A stretch of DNA of 32,000 nt, taken from positions 330,001-362,000 of the forward strand of contig NZ_OZ060386.1 of the NCBI RefSeq assembly GCF_964059055.1, in the 5' to 3' direction. The notes beneath the pieces are model-generated. The model did no database searches and had not been told where the DNA came from. It saw only the letters and a program-made list of their open reading frames with translations. Numbering within the stretch: the first letter of the stretch is position 1; each line of letters starts with the position of its first letter. Origin of the DNA: Buchnera aphidicola (Neophyllaphis podocarpi). Its GTDB lineage: Bacteria > Pseudomonadota > Gammaproteobacteria > Enterobacterales > Enterobacteriaceae. Below are positions 1,599-21,964 of the stretch, one piece after another. A program made the position numbers and the translations under genes.

Positions 1599-4349
1599 CT
1601 AAATAAACAAATATTTTTTATGTATATGTTTAATAAATGAAAAACTTAAACAATTATTAGATATGTTTACTCTAGAATTACTTTTTATTTTAGATGGAAT
1701 ATTATTTAAGCAATTTATTTTATTATATAGTTTACTGTTTTTATTTAAAACAACAATTTTGGTTATTGGAGCACTTGATTGATTCTTAATATGTTTCAAA
1801 AAATAAATTTTTTTATTAACTTTATTATCAAATTTATTTTTAGATATTTTTTTATAAATATTATATTTAATTTTTTTATTTAAAATTTTATTTTTTTTTA
1901 AAAATAAAATTATAATTAAATAATTAAATATTTGTTTTTTATAAAAACTGTTAATTTTGTGGTTAATAATTTTTATTATTTTAATTTTGTATTTTACATT
2001 TAAATTAACTAAATATTTTTTATATATTTTTTTTAATTTTATTTGTAAAGAGTATATAGAATAAGAAAACAAATTTGAAGATAAAAAAAATAATTTTAAT
2101 TCTACAAATAATATTTGAGCATATAAATTAAAAAATTTATTTTGATAATTTTTACATAAAAAATTCTGTAAATAGTAATTTTGATTTATATTTATAATAT
2201 AGTATAAATTATTTATAGATCTATTTGATTGTATATATGAAATTTTATATTTATTATTTATAATGTTTATTTTATAAAAATCATTTTTTATATTTATATT
2301 TTGTTTAATAAAAAATTTTTTAATATTAATTAAAAAAAATAAAGATTTTTTTTTAAAAATTTTAATAATACTTTTTATATTTTTGCTTAAATAATAAAAT
2401 TTTTTAAAAAGATAAAAATTATCAAAAAATTTATAAAATATTTTTTTTATATTATAAAAATAATTTTTAAAGACAAAAAAACAATCTAATGTAGCAATAT
2501 TATATTTTATTAATTTTTTTCTAAAATAGCTAATAGTAATATCTATTATTTTTTTAATTTTATTAAAAAACTTTTTTTTATATTTTATATATAAATTATT
2601 GATAAAACAAAAAATTGAATAAAAAAATTTTTTATGAAAATAATTTAGAATTAATTTAGTTATATTAGATATTTTATTAAAAAAATAGTTTACTTTTATA
2701 ATATTTTTAATATTTAAAGAATAATCTATTAAAAATTTATTTTTTAACTTTGAGTTACTTTTAAAAATACGCAAATCAATTTTATTTTTTATATATTTTT
2801 TTTCCAAATAATTTGAAATATCAATTTCATTAATTTTAGAAAGATGATAACTATTTTTTCTAACTTCTTCGCCTTTTTTTATTCTAATAATAGAATAATG
2901 GGGAGTATGCATAGATTTATTTGGTATAATTATAGTTTTTCCTCCATTTTGTTTTTTTTGTATTTTATTAATAGTATTACGTTTTTCATTTAATAAATAT
3001 GATGCTATTTCTATGGGCACAACAGCATGAACTTCGCAAGTATTTTCTTTTAATGACTCTTCTTCAATTAATCTTAAAATTGACAAAGATAAAGATTCGT
3101 TATCTCGGATAGCACCAGTACCAGTGCATCTAGGACAAATATGATAATTAGATTCGCTTAAAGAAGAATTTAAACGTTGTCTTGACATTTCTAATAAACC
3201 AAACCTAGAAATATTTCCTATTTGTATTCTAGCTCTGTCATTTTTAATAACTTTTTTTAATGTTTTTTCTATTATTTTTTGATGTTTTAATACAGTCATA
3301 TCAATAAAATCTATTACTATTAAACCACCTAAATCTCTCAATATTAATTGTCTAGATATTTCATTAACTGCTTCTAAATTTGTATTAAAAGCTGTTTCTT
3401 TAATATCAACTCCTTTAGTATATCTTGAAGAATTAATATCAATTGATGTAAGTGCTTCTGTTGTATCTATTATAATAGAGCCTCCAGAAGGCAATCTAAC
3501 TTTTCTTTGAAAAGCTGAATTAATTTGTGACTCAATCTGGTAATGACTAAATAAAGGAGTTTTTCCATTGTACAACTTTACTTTATTAATAAAGTCTAAG
3601 CGACCTAATAAATTTATATGTTTATATGAGAATTCTAAAATTTCTGGATTATCTATAATAATTTCCCCTATATCTGGTCTTAGATAATCTCTAAAAGCAC
3701 GAACTATTACATTACTTTCTTGATGTATTAAAAAAGGAGCCATTTTATTTTTAGCTATTTTTTGTATTTCATACCAATGTCTTAATCTAAATTTTAAATC
3801 TAATTTAAGATCTGTAATAGATTTACCTATACCAGCAGTTCTTATAATCACACTCATATTTTCAGGAATGTCTAATAAAGACAAAATATTTTTTAATTTA
3901 TCTCTATCCAATCCTTCTATACGACGAGATATTCCTCCAGAATTAGGATTATTTGGCATCAAAACTAAATAAATTCCAGCTAAACTAATAAAAGTAGTTA
4001 AAGCTGCTCCTTTACTACTACGCTCTTCTTTATTTATTTGAACTATAACTTCTTGACCTTCCTGTAAAACATTTTTGATATCAATGTGATCATTAAATAT
4101 AAAATTTGATTTCAAATATTCTTGAGAAATTTCCCTAATAGGTAAAAAACCATGTTTTTCTGTTCCATAATCAACGAAAACTGCTTCTAAACTAGGTTCT
4201 ATTCTAGTTATTTTGCCTTTATAAATATTTGATTTTTTTTGTTTATATCCAGAATTTTCTATATTAAGATTATATAAACGTTGCCCATCAACAAGAGCAA
4301 CACGAAGCTCTTCATATTGAGTTGCATTTATTAACATTCTTTTCATCAT
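1599..4349 (-). CDS. rne: Ribonuclease E; conserved catalytic N-terminal half plus highly divergent low-complexity C-terminal half
   Basis: 916-aa ORF. The first ~510 aa are colinear with E. coli RNase E (MKRMLINATQ.EELRVALVDGQRLY.L.IE, KGAALTTFISLAG.YLVLMPNNP..GGISRRIEG, Zn-link CPRCTGTGAIRDNESL). The remaining ~400 aa are K/N/I/F/Y-rich with no recognisable similarity. The start could be either of the tandem ATGs at 4349/4346. Confidence 0.95.
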   Translation of the reverse strand: MMKRMLINATQYEELRVALVDGQRLYNLNIENSGYKQKKSNIYKGKITRIEPSLEAVFVDYGTEKHGFLPIREISQEYLKSNFIFNDHIDIKNVLQEGQEVIVQINKEERSSKGAALTTFISLAGIYLVLMPNNPNSGGISRRIEGLDRDKLKNILSLLDIPENMSVIIRTAGIGKSITDLKLDLKFRLRHWYEIQKIAKNKMAPFLIHQESNVIVRAFRDYLRPDIGEIIIDNPEILEFSYKHINLLGRLDFINKVKLYNGKTPLFSHYQIESQINSAFQRKVRLPSGGSIIIDTTEALTSIDINSSRYTKGVDIKETAFNTNLEAVNEISRQLILRDLGGLIVIDFIDMTVLKHQKIIEKTLKKVIKNDRARIQIGNISRFGLLEMSRQRLNSSLSESNYHICPRCTGTGAIRDNESLSLSILRLIEEESLKENTCEVHAVVPIEIASYLLNEKRNTINKIQKKQNGGKTIIIPNKSMHTPHYSIIRIKKGEEVRKNSYHLSKINEIDISNYLEKKYIKNKIDLRIFKSNSKLKNKFLIDYSLNIKNIIKVNYFFNKISNITKLILNYFHKKFFYSIFCFINNLYIKYKKKFFNKIKKIIDITISYFRKKLIKYNIATLDCFFVFKNYFYNIKKIFYKFFDNFYLFKKFYYLSKNIKSIIKIFKKKSLFFLINIKKFFIKQNINIKNDFYKINIINNKYKISYIQSNRSINNLYYIININQNYYLQNFLCKNYQNKFFNLYAQILFVELKLFFLSSNLFSYSIYSLQIKLKKIYKKYLVNLNVKYKIKIIKIINHKINSFYKKQIFNYLIIILFLKKNKILNKKIKYNIYKKISKNKFDNKVNKKIYFLKHIKNQSSAPITKIVVLNKNSKLYNKINCLNNIPSKIKSNSRVNISNNCLSFSFIKHIHKKYLFI

Positions 4350-4702
4350 AAATCTCTAGTATAATTTTTGTAAACTTTCATATAAAAAAATAAAATATTT
4401 AAATATTAATATATAAAAATATTTTTTATAAAAATAATTATTTATTATTTAGAACAATAAATTCTAAATAATATAAAACTTATTAAAATTTATTATGGTT
4501 TTATAAAACTTTTTGTAATATTAATTAATATATAATATTATAAATAAAATATAATTATAAAAAACATAAAAATAAAATTATTTTATTAAATAAAAAATAT
4601 TTATTTTATAATAAATAAAAATTTTATTGAATATAATCAATTTAAATATAAATTAAATAAACATTTTTGATTAATAAAAAATTAAGAAGAAAAATCTAAA
4701 AA

Positions 4703-5631
4703 ATGACACACATCATTATAAACATCGATGAAAATAATATAAATCAAAGAATTGACAATTTTTTAAAAAAAAAATAAAAAAAATACACAAAAATACAATT
4801 TATAAAATATTACGTAAAGGAAATATACGTGTAAATAAAAAGAGAGTTAAACCAAAATATAAATTAAAAAATAAAGACATAGTAAAAATAACTAATATAA
4901 AATTTCAAAATAAGACTAATAAATATATCGATAAAAATATTATTAAACTAGAAAAAAGTATATTATATGAAGATAATTATTTAATAATAATAAATAAACC
5001 AGTTGGAATATCTGTACATGGAGGAAGTGGTATAAATTATGGTATTATAGAAAGAATAAGATTGCTTAGATCTAAAGTTAAATATTTAGAACTTGTACAT
5101 CGTCTTGATAAAGATACATCTGGAATTTTAATAATAGCAAAAAAAAGATCTACATTAGTATCCTTGCATAAACAAATTAGAGAACTGAAAGTTAAAAAAA
5201 AATATTTAACTTTAGTACATGGATTATGGTCTAAAAAAATTAAAAAAGTTGATTTACCTATATTAAAAAATAAAAAAAATAAAGGAATAAACTTAGTCAA
5301 AATTAGTTCATTAGGTAAAAAATCTCAGACTATTTTTGAAATCAAAAAAAAATATTTTAATATGACATTATTATATGCAATACCTGTTACAGGCAGAACT
5401 CATCAAATAAGAATTCATACATCTCATATAGGAAATCCTATAATTTTTGATAATAAATATGGTAATAAAATATTAGATAATAAAATTAATATTCAAAATT
5501 TAAGAAAAAAAATAATATTACATGCATATTCTATGAAATTCATACACCCTAATACTAAAAGTGAATTTTATATACAAGCACCTTTAAGTATAGAATTGAA
5601 AAAATACCTAAAAAGTCTAAACAACAATTAA
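4703..5631 (+). CDS. rluC: 23S rRNA pseudouridine synthase RluC, reading frame interrupted by a frameshift in an A10 tract (strictly a frameshifted gene; possibly rescued by slippage)
   Basis: ATG 4703 encodes [24 protein letters not shown], then TAA at 4775-4777. The -1 frame from 4774 continues [31 protein letters not shown]...[20 protein letters not shown]...GRTHQIRIH to the stop at 5631. Both halves align to E. coli RluC (..[60 protein letters not shown]). The ORF-track start at 5062 (TTG) would remove the S4 domain. Confidence 0.88.
4765..4774 (+). repeat. A10 homopolymer at the rluC frameshift site (followed by T then A8, 4776-4783)
   Basis: Counted directly: positions 4765-4774 are all A. 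The upstream frame is 4703 mod 3 and the downstream frame is 4774 mod 3, which differ by -1. Confidence 0.95.
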
Positions 5632-5857: not shown

Positions 5858-5886
5858 ACTGTCAATTAAAAAAATAAATTGACAGT
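5858..5886 (+). terminator. Perfect 10-bp hairpin downstream of rpmF (possible terminator or attenuator before fabD)
   Basis: actgtcaatt (5858-5867) and aattgacagt (5877-5886) are exact reverse complements with a 9-nt A-rich loop. There is no strong U tract afterwards. Confidence 0.4.
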
Positions 5887-5927
5887 TAAATATAAAAATA
5901 ATTTAAAAAAATTAAAAGGATTTTCTT

Positions 5928-6881
5928 ATGAAATATGCAGTAATATTTCCAGGACAAAATTTTCAATCTATTAAAAATCTAAATAATCTTGCAAAAAAAT
6001 ATTCTTCGATTAAAAAAAAATTTTATGAAGCATCTGATTATTTAAATTGTAATTTATGGAATATAATACAAAATTTAGATGAAAAAAAAATTAATCTTAA
6101 TAATTATATACAACCTATTATACTAACAATATCTGTATCTATATATAATATATGGAAACAAAAAAAACAAAAAAAACCTACTATTATGGTTGGGCACAGT
6201 TTAGGAGAATATTCTGCTTTAGTATGCTCAAACAGTATAAATTTTGGTGATGCTTTAAAATTAATTATGATTAGAAGTAAATTAATGCAAGAAGTTTCAA
6301 TAAAAAATGAAGGATTAATGTATGCTATTGTGGGTATAGATAAAAATATTATAAATAACATATGTAATTTAGTTTCAAATAAAGAAATAGTTTCTATTGC
6401 AGCAATAAATTCTCCTGATCAAGTAATAATTTCCGGAAACAAAAATTCTATAATTAAAACTATTAAAATATGTAAAAATATTGGAGCAAAATATGTAATT
6501 AAATTACCAACAAAAATTCCTTCTCATTGTATATTAATGAAAGATATATCAATTATTTTTAAAAAAAAATTAAAAAAAATAAAATTTAAAAATCCTAAAT
6601 ATTTATTTATAGATAATGCAAATGCAAAATTTATTAATTCTGAATCTGATATTAAAAATTCTCTAGTAAAACAATTATATTGTCCAATATTATGGACAGA
6701 AGTTATGAAACTTATAGAAAAAAAAATTTTTTTATCAATTGAAATAGGGACTAAAAATATATTAAGTAATATTAATAAATATTTAACTAAAATCAACTCA
6801 TTAACAATTAACAATGAAAAAAACTTATATACTGCATTAAAATATATATTAAATAAAAAGGAAAATAATAAAAATGTCTAA
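5928..6881 (+). CDS. fabD: Malonyl-CoA:ACP transacylase
   Basis: 317-aa ORF with SD AAGGA upstream. It carries the active-site GHSLGEYSALV, IRSKLMQE (Arg) and PSHCILM (His), colinear with E. coli FabD. The N-terminal FPGQGSQ motif reads FPGQNFQ here. Confidence 0.9.
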   Translation: MKYAVIFPGQNFQSIKNLNNLAKKYSSIKKKFYEASDYLNCNLWNIIQNLDEKKINLNNYIQPIILTISVSIYNIWKQKKQKKPTIMVGHSLGEYSALVCSNSINFGDALKLIMIRSKLMQEVSIKNEGLMYAIVGIDKNIINNICNLVSNKEIVSIAAINSPDQVIISGNKNSIIKTIKICKNIGAKYVIKLPTKIPSHCILMKDISIIFKKKLKKIKFKNPKYLFIDNANAKFINSESDIKNSLVKQLYCPILWTEVMKLIEKKIFLSIEIGTKNILSNINKYLTKINSLTINNEKNLYTALKYILNKKENNKNV

Positions 6882-7592
6882 AAAAAAATAGCTTTAGTTA
6901 CAGGAGCTACAAGAGGTATAGGAAAATCTATAGCTCAAAATTTAACAAAAAGTAATTTTTTCGTGATTGGTACATCAACAAATAAGGAAGGAGTTAAACA
7001 AATTAGTAATTATTTACAAAATAATGGTTGTGGTTTAATATTACAGTTAGAAAAAATACAATCTATTGATAATATATTTAAAAAATTTAAAAACATAGAT
7101 GTATTAATAAATAATGCAGGTATTATATGTGATAAATTAATTACAAATATGAATATTGAAGATTGGAATAAAGTAATAGACATAAATTTAAAATCAGTTT
7201 TTTATTTATCTAAAAATGTTATAAAACATATGTCAAAAAATAATTATGGGAGAATTATTAATATAAGCTCTATATCTGGATTTACAGGCAATGTTGGACA
7301 ATCTAACTATTCAGCTTCAAAAGCAGGAATTGTAGGATTTACAAAATCTATTGCATTAGAAGTTGCTTTAAAAGGAATTACTGTAAATAATATATCTCCT
7401 GGGTTAATTAATACTAATTTGACTAAAAAATTAACAAATAAACAAAAAATAAAATTTATATCAAAAATACCAATGAAAAGATTTGGTAATGTACAAGAAG
7501 TAGCTGATTTAATATTATTTTTAGTCTCAAAAAAATCTTCATATATTACGGGGCAAACTATACATATAAATGGTGGAATGTATATGACTTAA
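6874..7592 (+). CDS. fabG: 3-oxoacyl-ACP reductase FabG, start codon out of frame with the body across an A9 tract (frameshifted; possibly rescued by slippage)
   Basis: SD AAGGAAA (6858-6864) precedes ATG 6874, which reads ATG TCT AAA AAA AAA TAG. The conserved body starts in the -1 frame at 6888: IALVTGATRGIGKSIAQNL...NNAGI...YSASKAG...GGMYMT, versus E. coli FabG MNFEGKIALVTGASRGIGRAIAETL. That frame has no ATG/GTG/TTG before GTG 6963, which lies after the TGxxxGIG cofactor motif. Confidence 0.85.
6880..6888 (+). repeat. A9 homopolymer at the fabD stop / fabG frameshift site
   Basis: Counted directly: 6880-6888 are all A. The fabD stop TAA occupies 6879-6881. The fabG body is in the same frame as fabD. 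Confidence 0.95.
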
Positions 7593-7942: not shown

Positions 7943-7990
7943 ATATAATTAAAATAACATTAAATTATATAAAATATTTTAGTGAAAAAA

Positions 7991-8632
7991 ATGAAAGGCA
8001 AATTTATTGTAATAGAAGGAATAGAAGGTGCAGGTAAAACTAGCGCTATTAATTATATAGCTCACATTTTACGGAAAGAACATAAAATAAAAAAAATTAA
8101 AATAGTACGTGAACCTGGAAATACACCTATTGCAGAAAAATTAAGAAAGTTAATAAAAAAAGGAAACAAAAATGAAGAACTAACAGACATATCCATGTTA
8201 TTATTGATCTATGCCGCTAGAATACAATTAATCAAAAAAATCATAAAACCTTCTATAAAAAAAGGTTCCTGGGTAATTGGAGATCGTCATACTTTATCTT
8301 CTTTTGCATATCAAGGAGGAGGTTTTAAGATAGAAGATAAAATAATTAACAAAATTCATAAAATATCTATGGATAATTTTAAACCAAATTTGACGTTATT
8401 TTTAGATGTTTTACCTTCTATTGGATTAAAACGTATTCTTTCAAGAAAAAATAGAGATATCATAGAAAATAAATCAATTAATTTTTTTAAAAATACTAGA
8501 AAAAAGTATATTAAATTAATTAAACATGATAAAAAAATTATAAAAATTAATGCAAATCTAAAAATTAATCAAGTTTATAGATTAATTAAAAATAAATTAA
8601 ATAGTTGGATAAAAATAGAAAAGTGTTTATAA
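7991..8632 (+). CDS. tmk: Thymidylate kinase
   Basis: MKGKFIVIEGIEGAGKT (P-loop), REPGNTPIAEKLR, GDRHTLSSFAYQGGG, colinear with E. coli Tmk (MRSKYIVIEGLEGAGKTT). The ORF track starts at in-frame GTG 7982. ATG 7991 matches the E. coli N-terminus better, so the start is uncertain by 9 nt. Confidence 0.9.
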   Translation: MKGKFIVIEGIEGAGKTSAINYIAHILRKEHKIKKIKIVREPGNTPIAEKLRKLIKKGNKNEELTDISMLLLIYAARIQLIKKIIKPSIKKGSWVIGDRHTLSSFAYQGGGFKIEDKIINKIHKISMDNFKPNLTLFLDVLPSIGLKRILSRKNRDIIENKSINFFKNTRKKYIKLIKHDKKIIKINANLKINQVYRLIKNKLNSWIKIEKCL

Positions 8633-11983: not shown

Positions 11984-12330
11984 ATGAAAAAAAAAATATT
12001 TTTGAAAAAATTATAAAAAAAGAAATAAAATCAGAAATAGTTTACCAAGATGAAAAAATTACAGCCTTTAAAGATATTAATCCTAAAGCTCCTATACATA
12101 TAATTATTGTACCAAATAAATTTATAAAAAATATGAATGAAATTACTATAAAACATAGCAAAATAATTTTTCATATGTTTTATACAGCAGTTAAAATAGC
12201 AAAAATGAAAAATATAGATTTTAGTGGATATAAATTAATTATAAATTGCAATAAAGATGGAGGACAAATAATTCCTTATTTACATATGCATTTAATAGGA
12301 GGTATAAAATTAAGTAATTTTATAGTTTAA
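11984..12330 (+). CDS. hinT: HIT-family purine nucleoside phosphoramidase HinT (YcfF), start codon out of frame with the body across an A10 tract (frameshifted; possibly rescued by slippage)
   Basis: SD AAGAGA (11971-11976) precedes ATG 11984, which reads ATG AAA AAA AAA ATA TTT TTG AAA AAA TTA TAA. The -1 frame from 11995 reads [42 protein letters not shown]...HMHLIGG. E. coli HinT is [45 protein letters not shown]...HMHLLGG. The first canonical start in the body frame is ATG 12133, which would lose the nucleotide-binding N-terminal half. Confidence 0.85.
11987..11996 (+). repeat. A10 homopolymer at the hinT frameshift site
   Basis: Counted directly: 11987-11996 are all A, immediately after ATG 11984-11986. 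Confidence 0.95.
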
Positions 12331-12446
12331 AACTTCTTAAATTATAATCAGAAATAAAATATAAAATTAACTTTAATATTTTTAAAAAATAAAAATTTAT
12401 AAGTAATACTAAAAATTATTATTTTATAATAAATTTATTTAATAAT

Positions 12447-12482
12447 TAAGTTAATATTAATTAATAAATTAATATTAACTTA
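12447..12482. terminator. Perfect 16-bp AT-rich hairpin between convergent hinT and ycaR (possible bidirectional terminator)
   Basis: 12447-12462 (taagttaatattaatt) is the exact reverse complement of 12467-12482, with a 4-nt loop (aata). Only one G:C pair is present, so it is thermodynamically weak. Confidence 0.35.
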
Positions 12483-12509
12483 TAAAAATAATTTTTATTA
12501 TATTATATA

Positions 12510-12662
12510 CTAATTATTAATTTTTAATAAATTAGGAATTTTATTATCAATAGGCCATATAATTTTATCATTATTACATATTAACTCATTTTTTGTACTA
12601 TTAAAAATTAATTTATTAAAACATATTGGACAAGCTAAAATATTTAATAAATTATTATCCAT
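12510..12662 (-). CDS. ycaR: Small Trm112-like/UPF0434 zinc-ribbon-type protein YcaR (50 aa)
   Basis: Not in the ORF track. Minus-strand translation from ATG (complement of 12660-12662) to TAG (12510-12512) gives MDNNLLNILACPICFNKLIFNSTKNELICNNDKIIWPIDNKIPNLLKINN. E. coli YcaR, recalled from memory, is [50 protein letters not shown]. Confidence 0.75.
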   Translation of the reverse strand: MDNNLLNILACPICFNKLIFNSTKNELICNNDKIIWPIDNKIPNLLKINN

Positions 12663-13366
12663 ATAAACTCAAAATAAAATGATAATATCATAAAATTATA
12701 ATATCATAAACTTATATTAAATTTTTATTAAAAAAGCTATAAAATACATTTTTATTCGAAATTATAATATAAATTTTTAAATAGAAATATTTAATTTATA
12801 ATTAAATAAAAATAAAACAATTTATGATTAACATTTTATTAAAATTAATAGTTAAATTTGATTTTTTGTATTATAAATTTCTATATTCAAAATAAATAAA
12901 TATAAAATATATTATTTGTAAAATTACATAATAAAAAAACTAAATTTTATTTATATAAAAATATTTATTATTAAAAAATATTAAAATATAAATTAGTATA
13001 GTTAATATAAAAAGTATAAATTCGATAAAATTTTTAATTTTTTAAAAAACTGAATTAAATATAAAAATCATAAAAATAAATTTAGTAATCAAAAAATTTA
13101 ATTTATATATATATATTAAAAAAATTTTAGTTATATAAAAATATAATAATTAAATTAAATTTTATTTTATTAAATTAAATTAGATTTAACTTAAAAAGTA
13201 AATTAATATTATTTTTAAAATTTAATTATATTAATTTTTAAAATTAAATATCTTTATAAAAACAAAATTAAAATATTATATTTAATATATAGATTTAAGA
13301 AAATAAAATTAAAATAAAAATATTTTTTACATAATTGTGACTTTAAAAATAAATATAAATAAAATT
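12663..13366. other. 704-bp gene-free hyper-AT spacer (about 5% G+C by line counts); no ORF and no structured-RNA-like G+C island
   Basis: The track shows no ORF on either strand. Individual 60-nt lines contain only 2-4 G/C. The spacer contains a short (TA)6 run at 13104-13116. Confidence 0.6.
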
Positions 13367-16191: not shown

Positions 16192-17148
16192 TTATAGAAG
16201 ATTATAAGTCTTATTAAAAAAATTATATTTACAAGCCAAAGAGCAATATTTATCTAAACTATTCCTGCAATATTTACATTGTATAAAAAGCAAATGACAA
16301 GAACTATTTTTACAATTTATATAAGTATCACAAAGATTATTACATTGATGACAAGAAGATATTATGTTATTTGAATAATCTTCAATCATACGCGCATCAA
16401 AAACAAAGAGTTTTCCTTGAAAGTAATTAGGTAAATTAAACTTATGTACATCACGTAAATATTTTAAGATACCACCTTTTATATGATATACATTTTTAAA
16501 ATTATTATTAAGTAACAAAGAGGTAGATTTTTCGCATCTAATACCACCAGTACAATACATTAATATCTTTTTATTTTTAAATTTTATTAATAAACTTAAT
16601 ATATCTTGCATTTGTTGTTTAAAAGTTTTAGCTCTAACATTTATAGAATTTACAAAATGTCCTATTTCATACTCATAATAATTACGCATATCTACTAATA
16701 CGGCAGAAGAATCTTCAATCATATTATTAACTTCTATAGCATTTAAATATATTCCATTATTTTTATTATTAAATTTATTACAAATAATACCATCAGAAAC
16801 AATTTGTTTTTTAATTCTGACATACAATTTATTAAATGGTATTTTACTATAACTTAGGGCTAAATTCATATACAAATTATTTAATTCAGATTTTAAAAGA
16901 TATATGAATAATTTCATTTTATGATAAAAAACCAAAGGTACACTAATTTGAGCATTAATACCTTCAAAAGATATATAAACTCTACCTAAAATATTCATTT
17001 TATTAAAATTTATATGAATAAAATCACGAAATAATTCCGGTTTACTAATATAAAAATATTTATAAAAAGAAACTATCTTAATTTTATGTATTTTATTTTT
17101 TTTTTTGTTCAACAAACTTTTTTTATCTTTACTCAACAAAAATGACAT
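16192..17148 (-). CDS. trhO: Rhodanese-domain protein YceA (tRNA U34 hydroxylase TrhO family)
   Basis: Colinear with E. coli YceA (SFYKYF.I, GRVY...EGINAQISVP, DMRN.YEYE.GHF, MYCTGGIRCEK, C-terminal HCHQC...CKN..CHLLFIQC). The ORF track starts at TTG 17160. ATG at the complement of 17146-17148 (MSFLLSK...) is preferred. Confidence 0.87.
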   Translation of the reverse strand: MSFLLSKDKKSLLNKKKNKIHKIKIVSFYKYFYISKPELFRDFIHINFNKMNILGRVYISFEGINAQISVPLVFYHKMKLFIYLLKSELNNLYMNLALSYSKIPFNKLYVRIKKQIVSDGIICNKFNNKNNGIYLNAIEVNNMIEDSSAVLVDMRNYYEYEIGHFVNSINVRAKTFKQQMQDILSLLIKFKNKKILMYCTGGIRCEKSTSLLLNNNFKNVYHIKGGILKYLRDVHKFNLPNYFQGKLFVFDARMIEDYSNNIISSCHQCNNLCDTYINCKNSSCHLLFIQCKYCRNSLDKYCSLACKYNFFNKTYNLL

Positions 17149-20206: not shown

Positions 20207-21715
20207 TTAATTTTTGATAATATTAGATAAATTAAGTAAAAATTGAGCAATTAAGAATAAAGGTCTGCCAGTAGATCCTTTATTAACTCCTGAATTATAT
20301 GCAGTTCCAGCAATATCAAAGTGAGCCCATTTATAATTACCTATAAAATGAGACAAAAAACAAGCAGCAGTGATTGCACCTGCAGATTTATTTCCTATAT
20401 TAGATATATCAGCAAAGTTAGATTTTAATTGTTCTGAATATTTTTTAAATAAAGGAAGATTCCATGCTGTATCGCCTGTTTGATTAGAAGCGCGCAAAAG
20501 ATCTGATGATAAGGAGTCATCATTAGAAAATAAACCATGAATATCTTTTCCTAAAGCAACAACACAAGCACCTGTAAGAGTTGCTATATCTATTACTATG
20601 TAAGGATCAAATCTATTTATATAAGTTAATACATCACACAATACTAAACGACCTTCAGCATCAGTATCTAAAACTTCTACAGTTTTTCCAGACATTGTTC
20701 TAACTATATCTCCTGGTCTAAATGAATTATTACCAGGCATATTTTCACAACCAGCTAATACCCCTATAACATGTAAAGGTAATTTTAATTCTGCAAGAAA
20801 AACCATAATTCCATAAACTACAGCAGCTCCACACATATCATATTTCATTTCATCCATATTAAAAGAAGGTTTTAAAGATATTCCCCCAGAATCAAAAGTT
20901 AAACCTTTACCTATTAAAACAATTTTTTTATCATATAAATTATCAACTATTGTATTTTTAAATTCTATTAAAGACATATATGATTTATTATAAGAACCTC
21001 CTCCTACAGCTAAATATGCAGACATACCCAATTCTTTCATTTTATTTTCGTCGATTATTTTAACTTTAATAAAATTATTATATTTATTTAATAAATCTAA
21101 AGAAACTTCAGATAAGTACAAAGGATTACATACATTAGGGGGCATATTACCTAGATCTTTGGCTTTATTTAAACCAATAGAAATAGATAAAGAAATCTTT
21201 AATGCATTTTTTACAATATTAATATCTTTACTATTATTAACATTTAAAATTATTTTATTTAGTAAAATACTATCATTTGACTTTTTAAAAAATAAAAAAT
21301 TATAAATTTTGTCTTCGACAGACTCTATTAAAAATCTGGTTTTCCAATATATATCTAGATTTTTAATATGTAAATCTAAAAATAAATAAATAACTTCTTG
21401 AACATTTATGTCATTTAATATAGAAATAGATTTATATATTAACTTCTTATACTTAACTAAATCAAATTTTTTTTGTATTCCACAGCCCATAATCAAAAAC
21501 TGGTTATTATGAGAATTATTTGAACTATTTATAAAAGTATATTTACCAAAATTAGTGTTAAGTTTACTATTTTTGACTAAATATCTCAAATATTTATTAA
21601 TATAAATATTTGAATATGTAATTGTGTTTGTCTTATTAAAACAATCAAAAACTCCCAAAACAAAGAATTTATTATTTAAATTTTTAATTTTTATTTTACA
21701 AATATCATATTTCAT
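20207..21715 (-). CDS. pepA: Leucyl (cytosol) aminopeptidase A, M17 family
   Basis: 502-aa ORF with M17 catalytic motifs (GKGLTFDSGGISLKP, DMCGAA, VLDTDAEGRLVLCD, ATLTGA). Confidence 0.95.
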   Translation of the reverse strand: MKYDICKIKIKNLNNKFFVLGVFDCFNKTNTITYSNIYINKYLRYLVKNSKLNTNFGKYTFINSSNNSHNNQFLIMGCGIQKKFDLVKYKKLIYKSISILNDINVQEVIYLFLDLHIKNLDIYWKTRFLIESVEDKIYNFLFFKKSNDSILLNKIILNVNNSKDINIVKNALKISLSISIGLNKAKDLGNMPPNVCNPLYLSEVSLDLLNKYNNFIKVKIIDENKMKELGMSAYLAVGGGSYNKSYMSLIEFKNTIVDNLYDKKIVLIGKGLTFDSGGISLKPSFNMDEMKYDMCGAAVVYGIMVFLAELKLPLHVIGVLAGCENMPGNNSFRPGDIVRTMSGKTVEVLDTDAEGRLVLCDVLTYINRFDPYIVIDIATLTGACVVALGKDIHGLFSNDDSLSSDLLRASNQTGDTAWNLPLFKKYSEQLKSNFADISNIGNKSAGAITAACFLSHFIGNYKWAHFDIAGTAYNSGVNKGSTGRPLFLIAQFLLNLSNIIKN

Positions 21716-21964
21716 TTTTTTTGTCTTATTAAATTATTTAATTAAATTTATCAAAATTTTAACATAAAATAAAAATTTTAATCGATTATATAATTAAATA
21801 AAAATATTTTTATATTAAATAGTTAAAATTGAAAATAAATATATTAAACAAAAGATTTAATAAACATCAAAAGTACCAATATGTTTATATAATTAACTAT
21901 TTTATATTAAAAAATATAATTATAATATAACCATATTATTTAATTTATTTAGGAAAATAAGTAT

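Follow-up and report, generated by a model that had tools for sequence, protein, structure and literature searches.

How does a bacterium make a functional protein from a gene whose initiation codon and body lie in different reading frames? The question is raised by fabG of Buchnera aphidicola (Neophyllaphis podocarpi), which we analyzed in a 32,000-nucleotide stretch of the genome (assembly GCF_964059055.1, contig NZ_OZ060386.1, positions 330,001 to 362,000; hereafter the window, to which all coordinates refer). The fabG initiation codon, ATG 6874, is separated from the conserved body of the gene by a run of nine adenines (A9, 6880-6888), which we propose as a slippage site. Restoration of the reading frame inside this A9 tract is probably the source of functional FabG, with transcription contributing the larger share. 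That slippage occurs, and whether RNA polymerase or the ribosome is its agent, we infer from the sequence and its relatives.

The features of the fabG junction all lie on the plus strand. A Shine-Dalgarno (SD) element, AAGGAAA (6858-6864), forms an anti-SD duplex of -5.6 kcal/mol and serves ATG 6874 across a 10-nucleotide gap, yet the frame that it opens reads ATG TCT AAA AAA AAA TAG (6874-6891), that is, MSKKK and a stop codon. The body of fabG lies in the -1 frame (6888-7592, with its stop codon at 7590-7592), which is also the frame of the upstream gene, fabD. The fabD stop codon, TAA 6879-6881, contributes its two A's as the first two A's of the A9 tract, and the body frame opens immediately behind it at 6882, reads KKIALVTGATRGIGKS, and stays open for 236 codons (6882-7589). 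Within this frame, the glycine-rich NADPH-binding motif TGATRGIG (TGxxxGIG) occupies 6900-6923, and no ATG, GTG, or TTG occurs before GTG 6963 (6963-6965), a codon placed past the cofactor motif, initiation at which would yield a truncated product of 209 amino acids. A sequence-only reading of this stretch had described the MSKKK frame with its SD element, the body frame shared with fabD, and GTG 6963 as the first canonical start past the motif, and all of these were confirmed on the sequence. Its further prediction, that lengthening A9 to A10 would yield MSKKKIALVTGA..., was borne out when we constructed the protein, a FabG of 239 amino acids. Among the 71 A/T runs of at least 8 nucleotides in the window, only the fabG A9 has two long open frames abutting.

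The protein restored by one inserted A is FabG by several measures. It aligns with residues 5-243 of Escherichia coli FabG (1I01), and TGATRGIG falls at FabG residues 10-17; in an alignment of 12 endosymbiont FabGs, T10, G11, A12, G15, I16, and G17 of this motif are invariant, as are the catalytic Ser-Tyr-Lys residues S133, Y146, and K150. The 236-amino-acid translation of the body frame scores 245 bits against the FabG subfamily model NF009466 (cutoff, 222) and 279.9 bits against the equivalog TIGR01830 (cutoff, 297.75), a slight shortfall that is expected because this is a fast-evolving, AT-rich ortholog. The product that would start at GTG 6963 covers the TIGR01830 profile only from position 32 of 239 and is without the cofactor motif. 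The fabD-fabG-acpP synteny also supports the predicted orthology. fabD itself (malonyl-CoA:ACP transacylase; 5928-6881, 317 codons) was identified by TIGR00128 (E = 5e-75) and by synteny. The window has a base composition of 21% G+C and carries, in order, rne, rluC, rpmF, fabD, fabG, acpP, tmk, holB, tatD, ptsG, and hinT, and the rluC-rpmF-fabD-fabG-acpP-tmk-holB synteny is present in all of the related loci that we examined.

Comparison with other Buchnera indicates what the tract once was. At the fabG position, four other Buchnera, including those of Pterocallis alni, Nurudea yanoniella, and Pseudoregma panicola, read ATG...AAA AAA AAA ATA GCT in frame, with an A10 or an A11, and their FabG products start MKNKKKIALVTGA, MKLKKKIALVTGA, or MKKKIAIVTGA. 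The restored N terminus of the window FabG agrees with the family consensus, M-x-x-KKK-IALVTGA. Relative to an ancestral tract that was in frame, then, the Neophyllaphis lineage lacks one A. An alignment of the fabD-fabG junction in related endosymbionts had been suggested as a check on the sequence-only reading, and the in-frame tracts found elsewhere agree with its claim of a single missing A.

A tract that is one base short could, in principle, be an assembly or sequencing error in a homopolymer, in which case the true genome would read A10. The three broken genes of the window (fabG, rluC, and hinT) are each exactly one A short, as would be expected if homopolymers had been systematically under-called. 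The same lengths, however, recur in three genomes from two laboratories and in two re-assemblies, and 15 other sense-strand A/T runs of 9 to 11 nucleotides inside open reading frames of the window are in frame. The string ATG-TCT-A9-TAG is identical in four related loci: it stands unchanged in CP135042, from the Neophyllaphis varicolor symbiont (99.45% identity to the window over 6.7 kilobases), and in CP135039, from another N. podocarpi symbiont (95.7 to 95.9% identity in two alignments). The same A9 is found in two independent Logan re-assemblies, SRR29340286 and SRR29340287, runs whose reads seem to derive from genomic DNA. For CP135039 and CP135042, the data are Illumina NovaSeq 2x150 (PMC11193766). 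The likeliest origin of the window genome is a HiSeq 2x251 study by Manzano-Marin et al. (bioRxiv 10.1101/2022.08.28.505559), as suggested by the accessions of the European Nucleotide Archive type, the Prokka-style names, and that study's coverage of Neophyllaphidinae. An A10 in re-sequenced DNA, which the sequence-only reading had named as evidence against its proposal, was thus not seen in the three genomes and two re-assemblies, and we regard an error as extremely improbable.

Two further genes on the plus strand of the window are broken in the same manner, and each needs exactly one extra A, as fabG does. rluC (4703-5631) starts at ATG 4703 and runs for 24 codons to TAA 4775-4777 across an A10 (4765-4774) that is followed by a T and an A8, while its body lies in the -1 frame. 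All related loci share the frameshift, and the sister genomes have an identical tract; between lineages, only two substitutions precede the tract, CAC to CAT and GAC to GAT, and in the ATG frame neither changes the amino acid. Only the RluC joined by one additional A has a complete Pfam S4 domain (profile positions 1-48 of 48, residues 15-61; score, 32 bits; cutoff, 22.8). The 274-amino-acid RluC of RefSeq, which begins at a non-canonical start, holds half of S4 and scores 22.0 bits, below the cutoff. This split domain is the clearest evidence, by homology, of a coding sequence that would span such a tract. The HinT gene, of the HIT family (11984-12330), starts at ATG 11984 directly before an A10 (11987-11996). 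The frame of this ATG closes at 12014-12016, and no canonical start occurs in the body, which occupies the -1 frame (11995-12330). The hinT tract, too, is identical in the sister genomes, CP135039 among them.

If fabG had been recently inactivated, or if it gave rise only to the inactive 209-amino-acid fragment from GTG 6963, the symbiont would lack fatty-acid reduction or rely on the host for it. Gene decay in endosymbionts usually begins with a homopolymer indel (PMC3017870), genes of fatty-acid elongation have been lost in some Buchnera (bioRxiv 10.1101/2022.08.28.505559), and automatic gene callers do output the 209-amino-acid product. The substitution record of the gene, however, points the other way. 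Between the window and CP135039, fabG has a synonymous divergence (dS) of 0.115, a nonsynonymous divergence (dN) of 0.028, and a dN/dS of 0.25, with an excess of synonymous changes (p = 5e-4); across 12 intact genes of the same stretch, dN/dS ranges from 0 to 0.30, so that fabG equals its neighbors, and the values for rluC and hinT are 0.12 and 0.04. The frameshift is older than the split of lineages with a dS of ~0.12, yet the body frame remains open over its 236 codons, without a second lesion, in all three Neophyllaphis Buchnera genomes. The flanking fabD and acpP are intact, and the GTG 6963 fragment would have neither the cofactor motif nor an SD. These data indicate a gene under purifying selection and not in decay, and together with the constraint on tract length described next they make loss of fabG very unlikely.

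Constraint on the tract itself emerges from a comparison of homopolymer lability. We aligned 20.3 kilobases of the window to CP135039 (95.65% identity) and scored A/T runs of at least 7 nucleotides. None of the 8 intergenic runs (examples lie at 4384-4390, 5868-5874, 5905-5911, 7985-7991, and 21715-21722) was unchanged, six having suffered an indel and two a substitution. Of 90 coding runs, a class that includes the three frame-breaking tracts, 72 were unchanged, 17 carried a substitution, and a single one carried an indel. The frame-breaking tracts were unchanged in three of three cases versus none of the eight intergenic runs (Fisher p = 0.006), and we therefore suggest that they act as translated, length-sensitive sequence and not as neutral relics or free leader.

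An alternative to slippage is initiation at ATA 6888, possibly by termination and reinitiation after MSKKK, in which case no slippage would be needed. RefSeq calls this start for the window (WP_367676325.1, 234 amino acids, M-ALVTGA...) and for its counterparts in the two sister genomes. The product would retain the whole of TGxxxGIG and scores nearly as well against adh_short (177.7 bits versus 179.8 for the restored protein), the MSKKK stop codon TAG overlaps the ATA (A-TAG), and AUA initiates measurably in E. coli (bioRxiv 10.1101/063800). Set against this, AUA reaches only ~0.02 to 3% of AUG in E. coli even with a good ribosome-binding site (bioRxiv 10.1101/063800), and we found no SD within 25 nucleotides before ATA 6888, nor any before GTG 6963. 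The SD of ATG 6874, in contrast, is among the best of the 15 gene starts in the window, where gaps range from 3 to 11 nucleotides. The N terminus of an ATA-initiated protein would also be the shortest of 118 full-length homologs: the motif T stands at residue 8 to 15 in 115 of them, at residue 10 in the product with one added A, and at residue 5 in the ATA product, and the three exceptions are the RefSeq ATA calls themselves. Nor would an untranslated leader be expected to hold its homopolymer length, given the fate of the intergenic runs. In rluC, finally, the parallel RefSeq start halves the S4 domain, and such non-canonical starts are therefore likely to be an annotation work-around. Taken together, these data leave ATA initiation unlikely, and we continue to favor initiation at ATG 6874 followed by frame restoration inside A9.

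The shared frame of fabD and the fabG body, with a single TAA between them, suggests a second way to bypass the tract in the window lineage: read-through of the fabD stop codon to give a FabD-FabG fusion. TAA is the least leaky stop codon, which counts against this route. CP135039 is also informative, as an A is missing there just before the fabG ATG, AATAAAATG versus AATAAAAATG in the window (6865-6891). Its fabD, in consequence, is in the frame of the ATG, runs through the tract to the TAG, and ends ...NNKMSKKK after 320 amino acids (junction at 2987-3004 of its locus L002 and 4894-4911 of its locus L089), whereas fabD of the window lineage ends at its TAA regardless of tract length. A CP135039 transcript with one added A would encode a FabD-FabG open reading frame of 554 codons, a point in favor of fusion. 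The relation between the fabD and fabG-body frames, however, differs between the lineages by this one-nucleotide indel while ATG-TCT-A9-TAG is constant, so that no single fusion route is conserved. In other Buchnera, fabD and fabG are separate genes. Fusion is accordingly a marginal prospect, even less probable than loss of the gene. The sequence-only reading had ranked both ATA initiation and a FabD-FabG fusion below slippage, and the comparative evidence, in the form of SD placement, N-terminal length, and conservation, agrees with that ranking.

The scenario that we favor would run as follows. A one-base deletion in an ancestral in-frame A10, which encoded an N-terminal run of lysines, would have become fixed. 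Translation would start at ATG 6874, served by the SD at 6858-6864, and full-length FabG (239 amino acids, MSKKKIALVTGATRGIGKS...) would come only from the share of decoding events that recover the frame inside A9. By the likeliest route, RNA polymerase would slip backwards on the A9/T9 hybrid, so that some transcripts gain one A; ribosomes on A_AAA_AAA may contribute as well, through a -1 slip of tRNA-Lys while TAG waits in the A site. Uncorrected events would yield only the pentapeptide MSKKK, and the frame-crossing product would carry the N-terminal peptide (M)SKKKIALVTGATR. Both routes give the same 239-amino-acid protein, so neither sequence analysis nor N-terminal proteomics can tell one from the other.

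A range of published data is consistent with slippage by RNA polymerase. In Buchnera transcripts, 151 of 157 insertions fall in homopolymer runs; across that dataset, 80% of all insertions are of one nucleotide only, and insertion becomes exponentially more frequent as runs lengthen (PMC5574713). This single-nucleotide bias matches the need of fabG, rluC, and hinT for one additional base. In many bacteria, selection against runs prone to slippage sets in at nine nucleotides (PMC1088944), and a critical slippage length of nine is also supported by Atkins et al., whose review counts Buchnera and Blochmannia among slippage cases (PMC5009743). Williams and Wernegreen describe frameshifted endosymbiont genes that give full-length products via a mixed pool of messenger RNAs (mRNAs), and they cite their reference 15, which we take to be Tamas 2008, for a full-length share of ~30% among the transcripts (PMC3017870).

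Could the ribosome do all of this, with the RNA staying at A9? The tract contains a perfect slippery heptamer, A_AAA_AAA (6882-6888), in the correct phase (0-frame codons at 6883 and 6886) and with a 0-frame stop directly after it that would slow the ribosome, and rluC shares this layout of a stop after the tract. Near a start codon, as in fabG, the adventitious C-AAA-AAA site of pDEST17 supports -1 frameshifting in E. coli that has been called high in efficiency, with transcripts confirmed to be unslipped (PMC1851650); there, too, a slippery lysine run lies in phase and a -1 shift is needed, as it also is at E. coli dnaX-type sites. Beside A9, moreover, the codons of the conserved IALVTGA form a 7-base-pair hairpin, UAGCUUU/GGAGCUA (6889-6909, plus strand), that folds better than shuffled sequence (z = -3.1). 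Several lines of evidence oppose this account as the sole mechanism. No spacer separates the hairpin from the heptamer, and the hairpin is broken in CP135039 and inconsistent in other Buchnera; as a stimulator it was rejected, since a synonymous GGA to GGC change in CP135039 weakens it from -5.2 to -2.1 kcal/mol, and it is probably incidental. Nothing comparable was found downstream of the rluC and hinT tracts, and an Rfam scan of 6500-7300 returned no match. Neither of the two stimulators of dnaX-type sites, a conserved stem-loop or pseudoknot ~5 to 9 nucleotides past the heptamer and an SD-like element ~10 nucleotides before it, was found at fabG, where the sole SD (6858-6864) ends 17 nucleotides before the heptamer. 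The fabG heptamer differs from those sites further in that it ends in AAA and not AAG, and in E. coli A_AAA_AAA shifts far less readily than A_AAA_AAG (PMC5009743). At hinT no stop lies next to the tract, and A9 is long enough for slippage by RNA polymerase, which is reported as demonstrated in Buchnera (PMC3017870, PMC5009743, bioRxiv 10.1101/2022.08.28.505559). A purely ribosomal route, which is a variant of frame restoration within A9 and not a departure from it, is therefore doubtful, to about the same degree as ATA initiation.

Several considerations weigh against frame restoration by slippage as we have described it. The rate of +1 slippage at A9 in this Buchnera could be low. The transcript survey that found insertions concentrated in homopolymers saw no frame-restoring event in its own data (PMC5574713). 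Because fabD of CP135039 extends across the tract, it may add to the constraint on the length of the fabG tract in that lineage. The segment of fabG that precedes the tract, finally, is two codons, which is too short for a synonymous/nonsynonymous test of its own.

The constancy of the three tracts invites a more elaborate hypothesis, in which 5'-proximal tracts that are one A short are selectively maintained attenuators that hold FabG, RluC, and HinT at low, slippage-limited doses. The idea is prompted by the observations that all three tracts lie within the first 25 codons, need the +1 change that RNA polymerase favors, and have not reverted to the in-frame length in either lineage, while every intergenic homopolymer changed. 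We consider it rather improbable, somewhat more so than a purely ribosomal route. Active maintenance of the out-of-frame state was rejected on a back-of-envelope calculation: if +1 reversion is neutral and ~3/8 of tracts gain bases over the time that separates the lineages, three non-reversions have a probability of ~0.24, which is not significant. What the tract comparison supports is constraint against tract-length change in general only.

Polymerase slippage reportedly rescues Buchnera and Blochmannia genes that are frameshifted in poly(A) tracts (Tamas et al. 2008, PNAS; Wernegreen et al. 2010; Williams and Wernegreen 2010, PMC3017870). The genes of this class (PMC3017870) reside in AT-rich obligate insect endosymbionts and carry a single indel in a sense-strand A run of at least nine; apart from the indel they are intact, purifying selection acts on them, related strains share the frameshift, and several such genes occur per genome. 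fabG agrees with them in sequence, as its break lies in an A9, consists of a single indel, and is conserved in three genomes with purifying selection. None of its differences is qualitative: its tract occupies codons 3 to 5, its uncorrected product is a pentapeptide, and its tract overlaps the stop codon of the upstream gene, and it is known here from sequence. dnaX of Thermus thermophilus and mxiE of Shigella (PMC1088944) share the sense-strand A9, and their mRNA is heterogeneous in the number of A's; in mxiE, slippage joins two frames into a longer product, as we propose for fabG. Those, however, are programmed sites with two useful products or a regulatory role, whereas the unslipped MSKKK has no evident use and fabG looks like a tolerated lesion. 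A precedent within the genus is pheA of Chaitophorinae Buchnera, a conserved poly(A) disruption read as transcriptionally rescued, probably by the same annotating laboratory (bioRxiv 10.1101/2022.08.28.505559). It is a different gene in a different aphid lineage and is treated explicitly in that paper; the three Neophyllaphis genes, fabG, rluC, and hinT, are to be found in the deposited annotation alone.

That annotation already joins the frames. All three proteins with one added A are found verbatim in the public deposit as CAL4323043.1 (FabG), CAL4322981.1 (RluC), and CAL4323164.1 (purine nucleoside phosphoramidase, HinT); CAL4323043.1 is exactly MSKKKIALVTGA..., and the joined HinT has 115 amino acids. 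The likely source paper, following Tamas et al. 2008, annotated genes frameshifted in A or T homopolymers as functional and considered their conservation (bioRxiv 10.1101/2022.08.28.505559). The 239-amino-acid FabG is found in NCBI annotation only and in no Logan assembly. The phenomenon has thus been known since 2008, fabG is already annotated as frame-crossing, and the feature is an ordinary one for such genomes. Our analysis adds the in-frame A10 and A11 tracts elsewhere, the contrast in lability between these tracts and intergenic runs, the placement of the SD, the split S4 domain, and the recognition that a transcript with one added A in the CP135039 lineage would also encode a FabD-FabG fusion.

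The main value of these results lies in annotation and metabolic reconstruction. Pipelines give three answers for fabG, namely 209 amino acids from GTG, 234 from ATA, and 239 across the tract, and only the last is typical of the family. RefSeq resorts to non-canonical starts for all three genes, with FabG, RluC, and HinT at 234, 274, and 117 amino acids, respectively (HinT from an upstream ATA), and automatic callers give 209, 189 to 205, and 65 amino acids. Pseudogene calls or truncations of this kind would wrongly delete fatty-acid synthesis, a domain of a ribosomal RNA pseudouridine synthase, and HinT from the inferred capabilities of the symbiont. The three conserved examples add to the pattern in which very AT-rich endosymbionts tolerate homopolymer frameshifts in genes that they need, and they change no concept.

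Several observations concern other parts of the window. Roughly 60 of the 71 A/T runs of at least 8 nucleotides place poly(A) on the sense strand of a gene. The longest run, T11 at 17096-17106 (minus strand; A11 on the sense strand), lies in a gene of the UPF0176/rhodanese family (16192-17148) that reads MSFLLSKDKKSLLNKKKNKIHK... and likely starts at ATG 17146-17148 and not at the upstream TTG 17160 of the mechanical list of open reading frames. We considered this T11 as a fourth frameshift and rejected it, as the gene is in frame from ATG 17146-17148. The single coding-run indel between the window and CP135039 falls in the 3' part of the same gene, beside an A7 at 16216-16222. Between hinT and aspS, ~1 kilobase (12331-13366) holds no open reading frame of at least 70 amino acids and no tRNA. 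In the CP135039 counterpart of this interval, a 50-amino-acid Trm112p-like gene is called on the minus strand (locus L089, 10531-10683), and the rest of the interval could be either the relic of a gene or an extended spacer.

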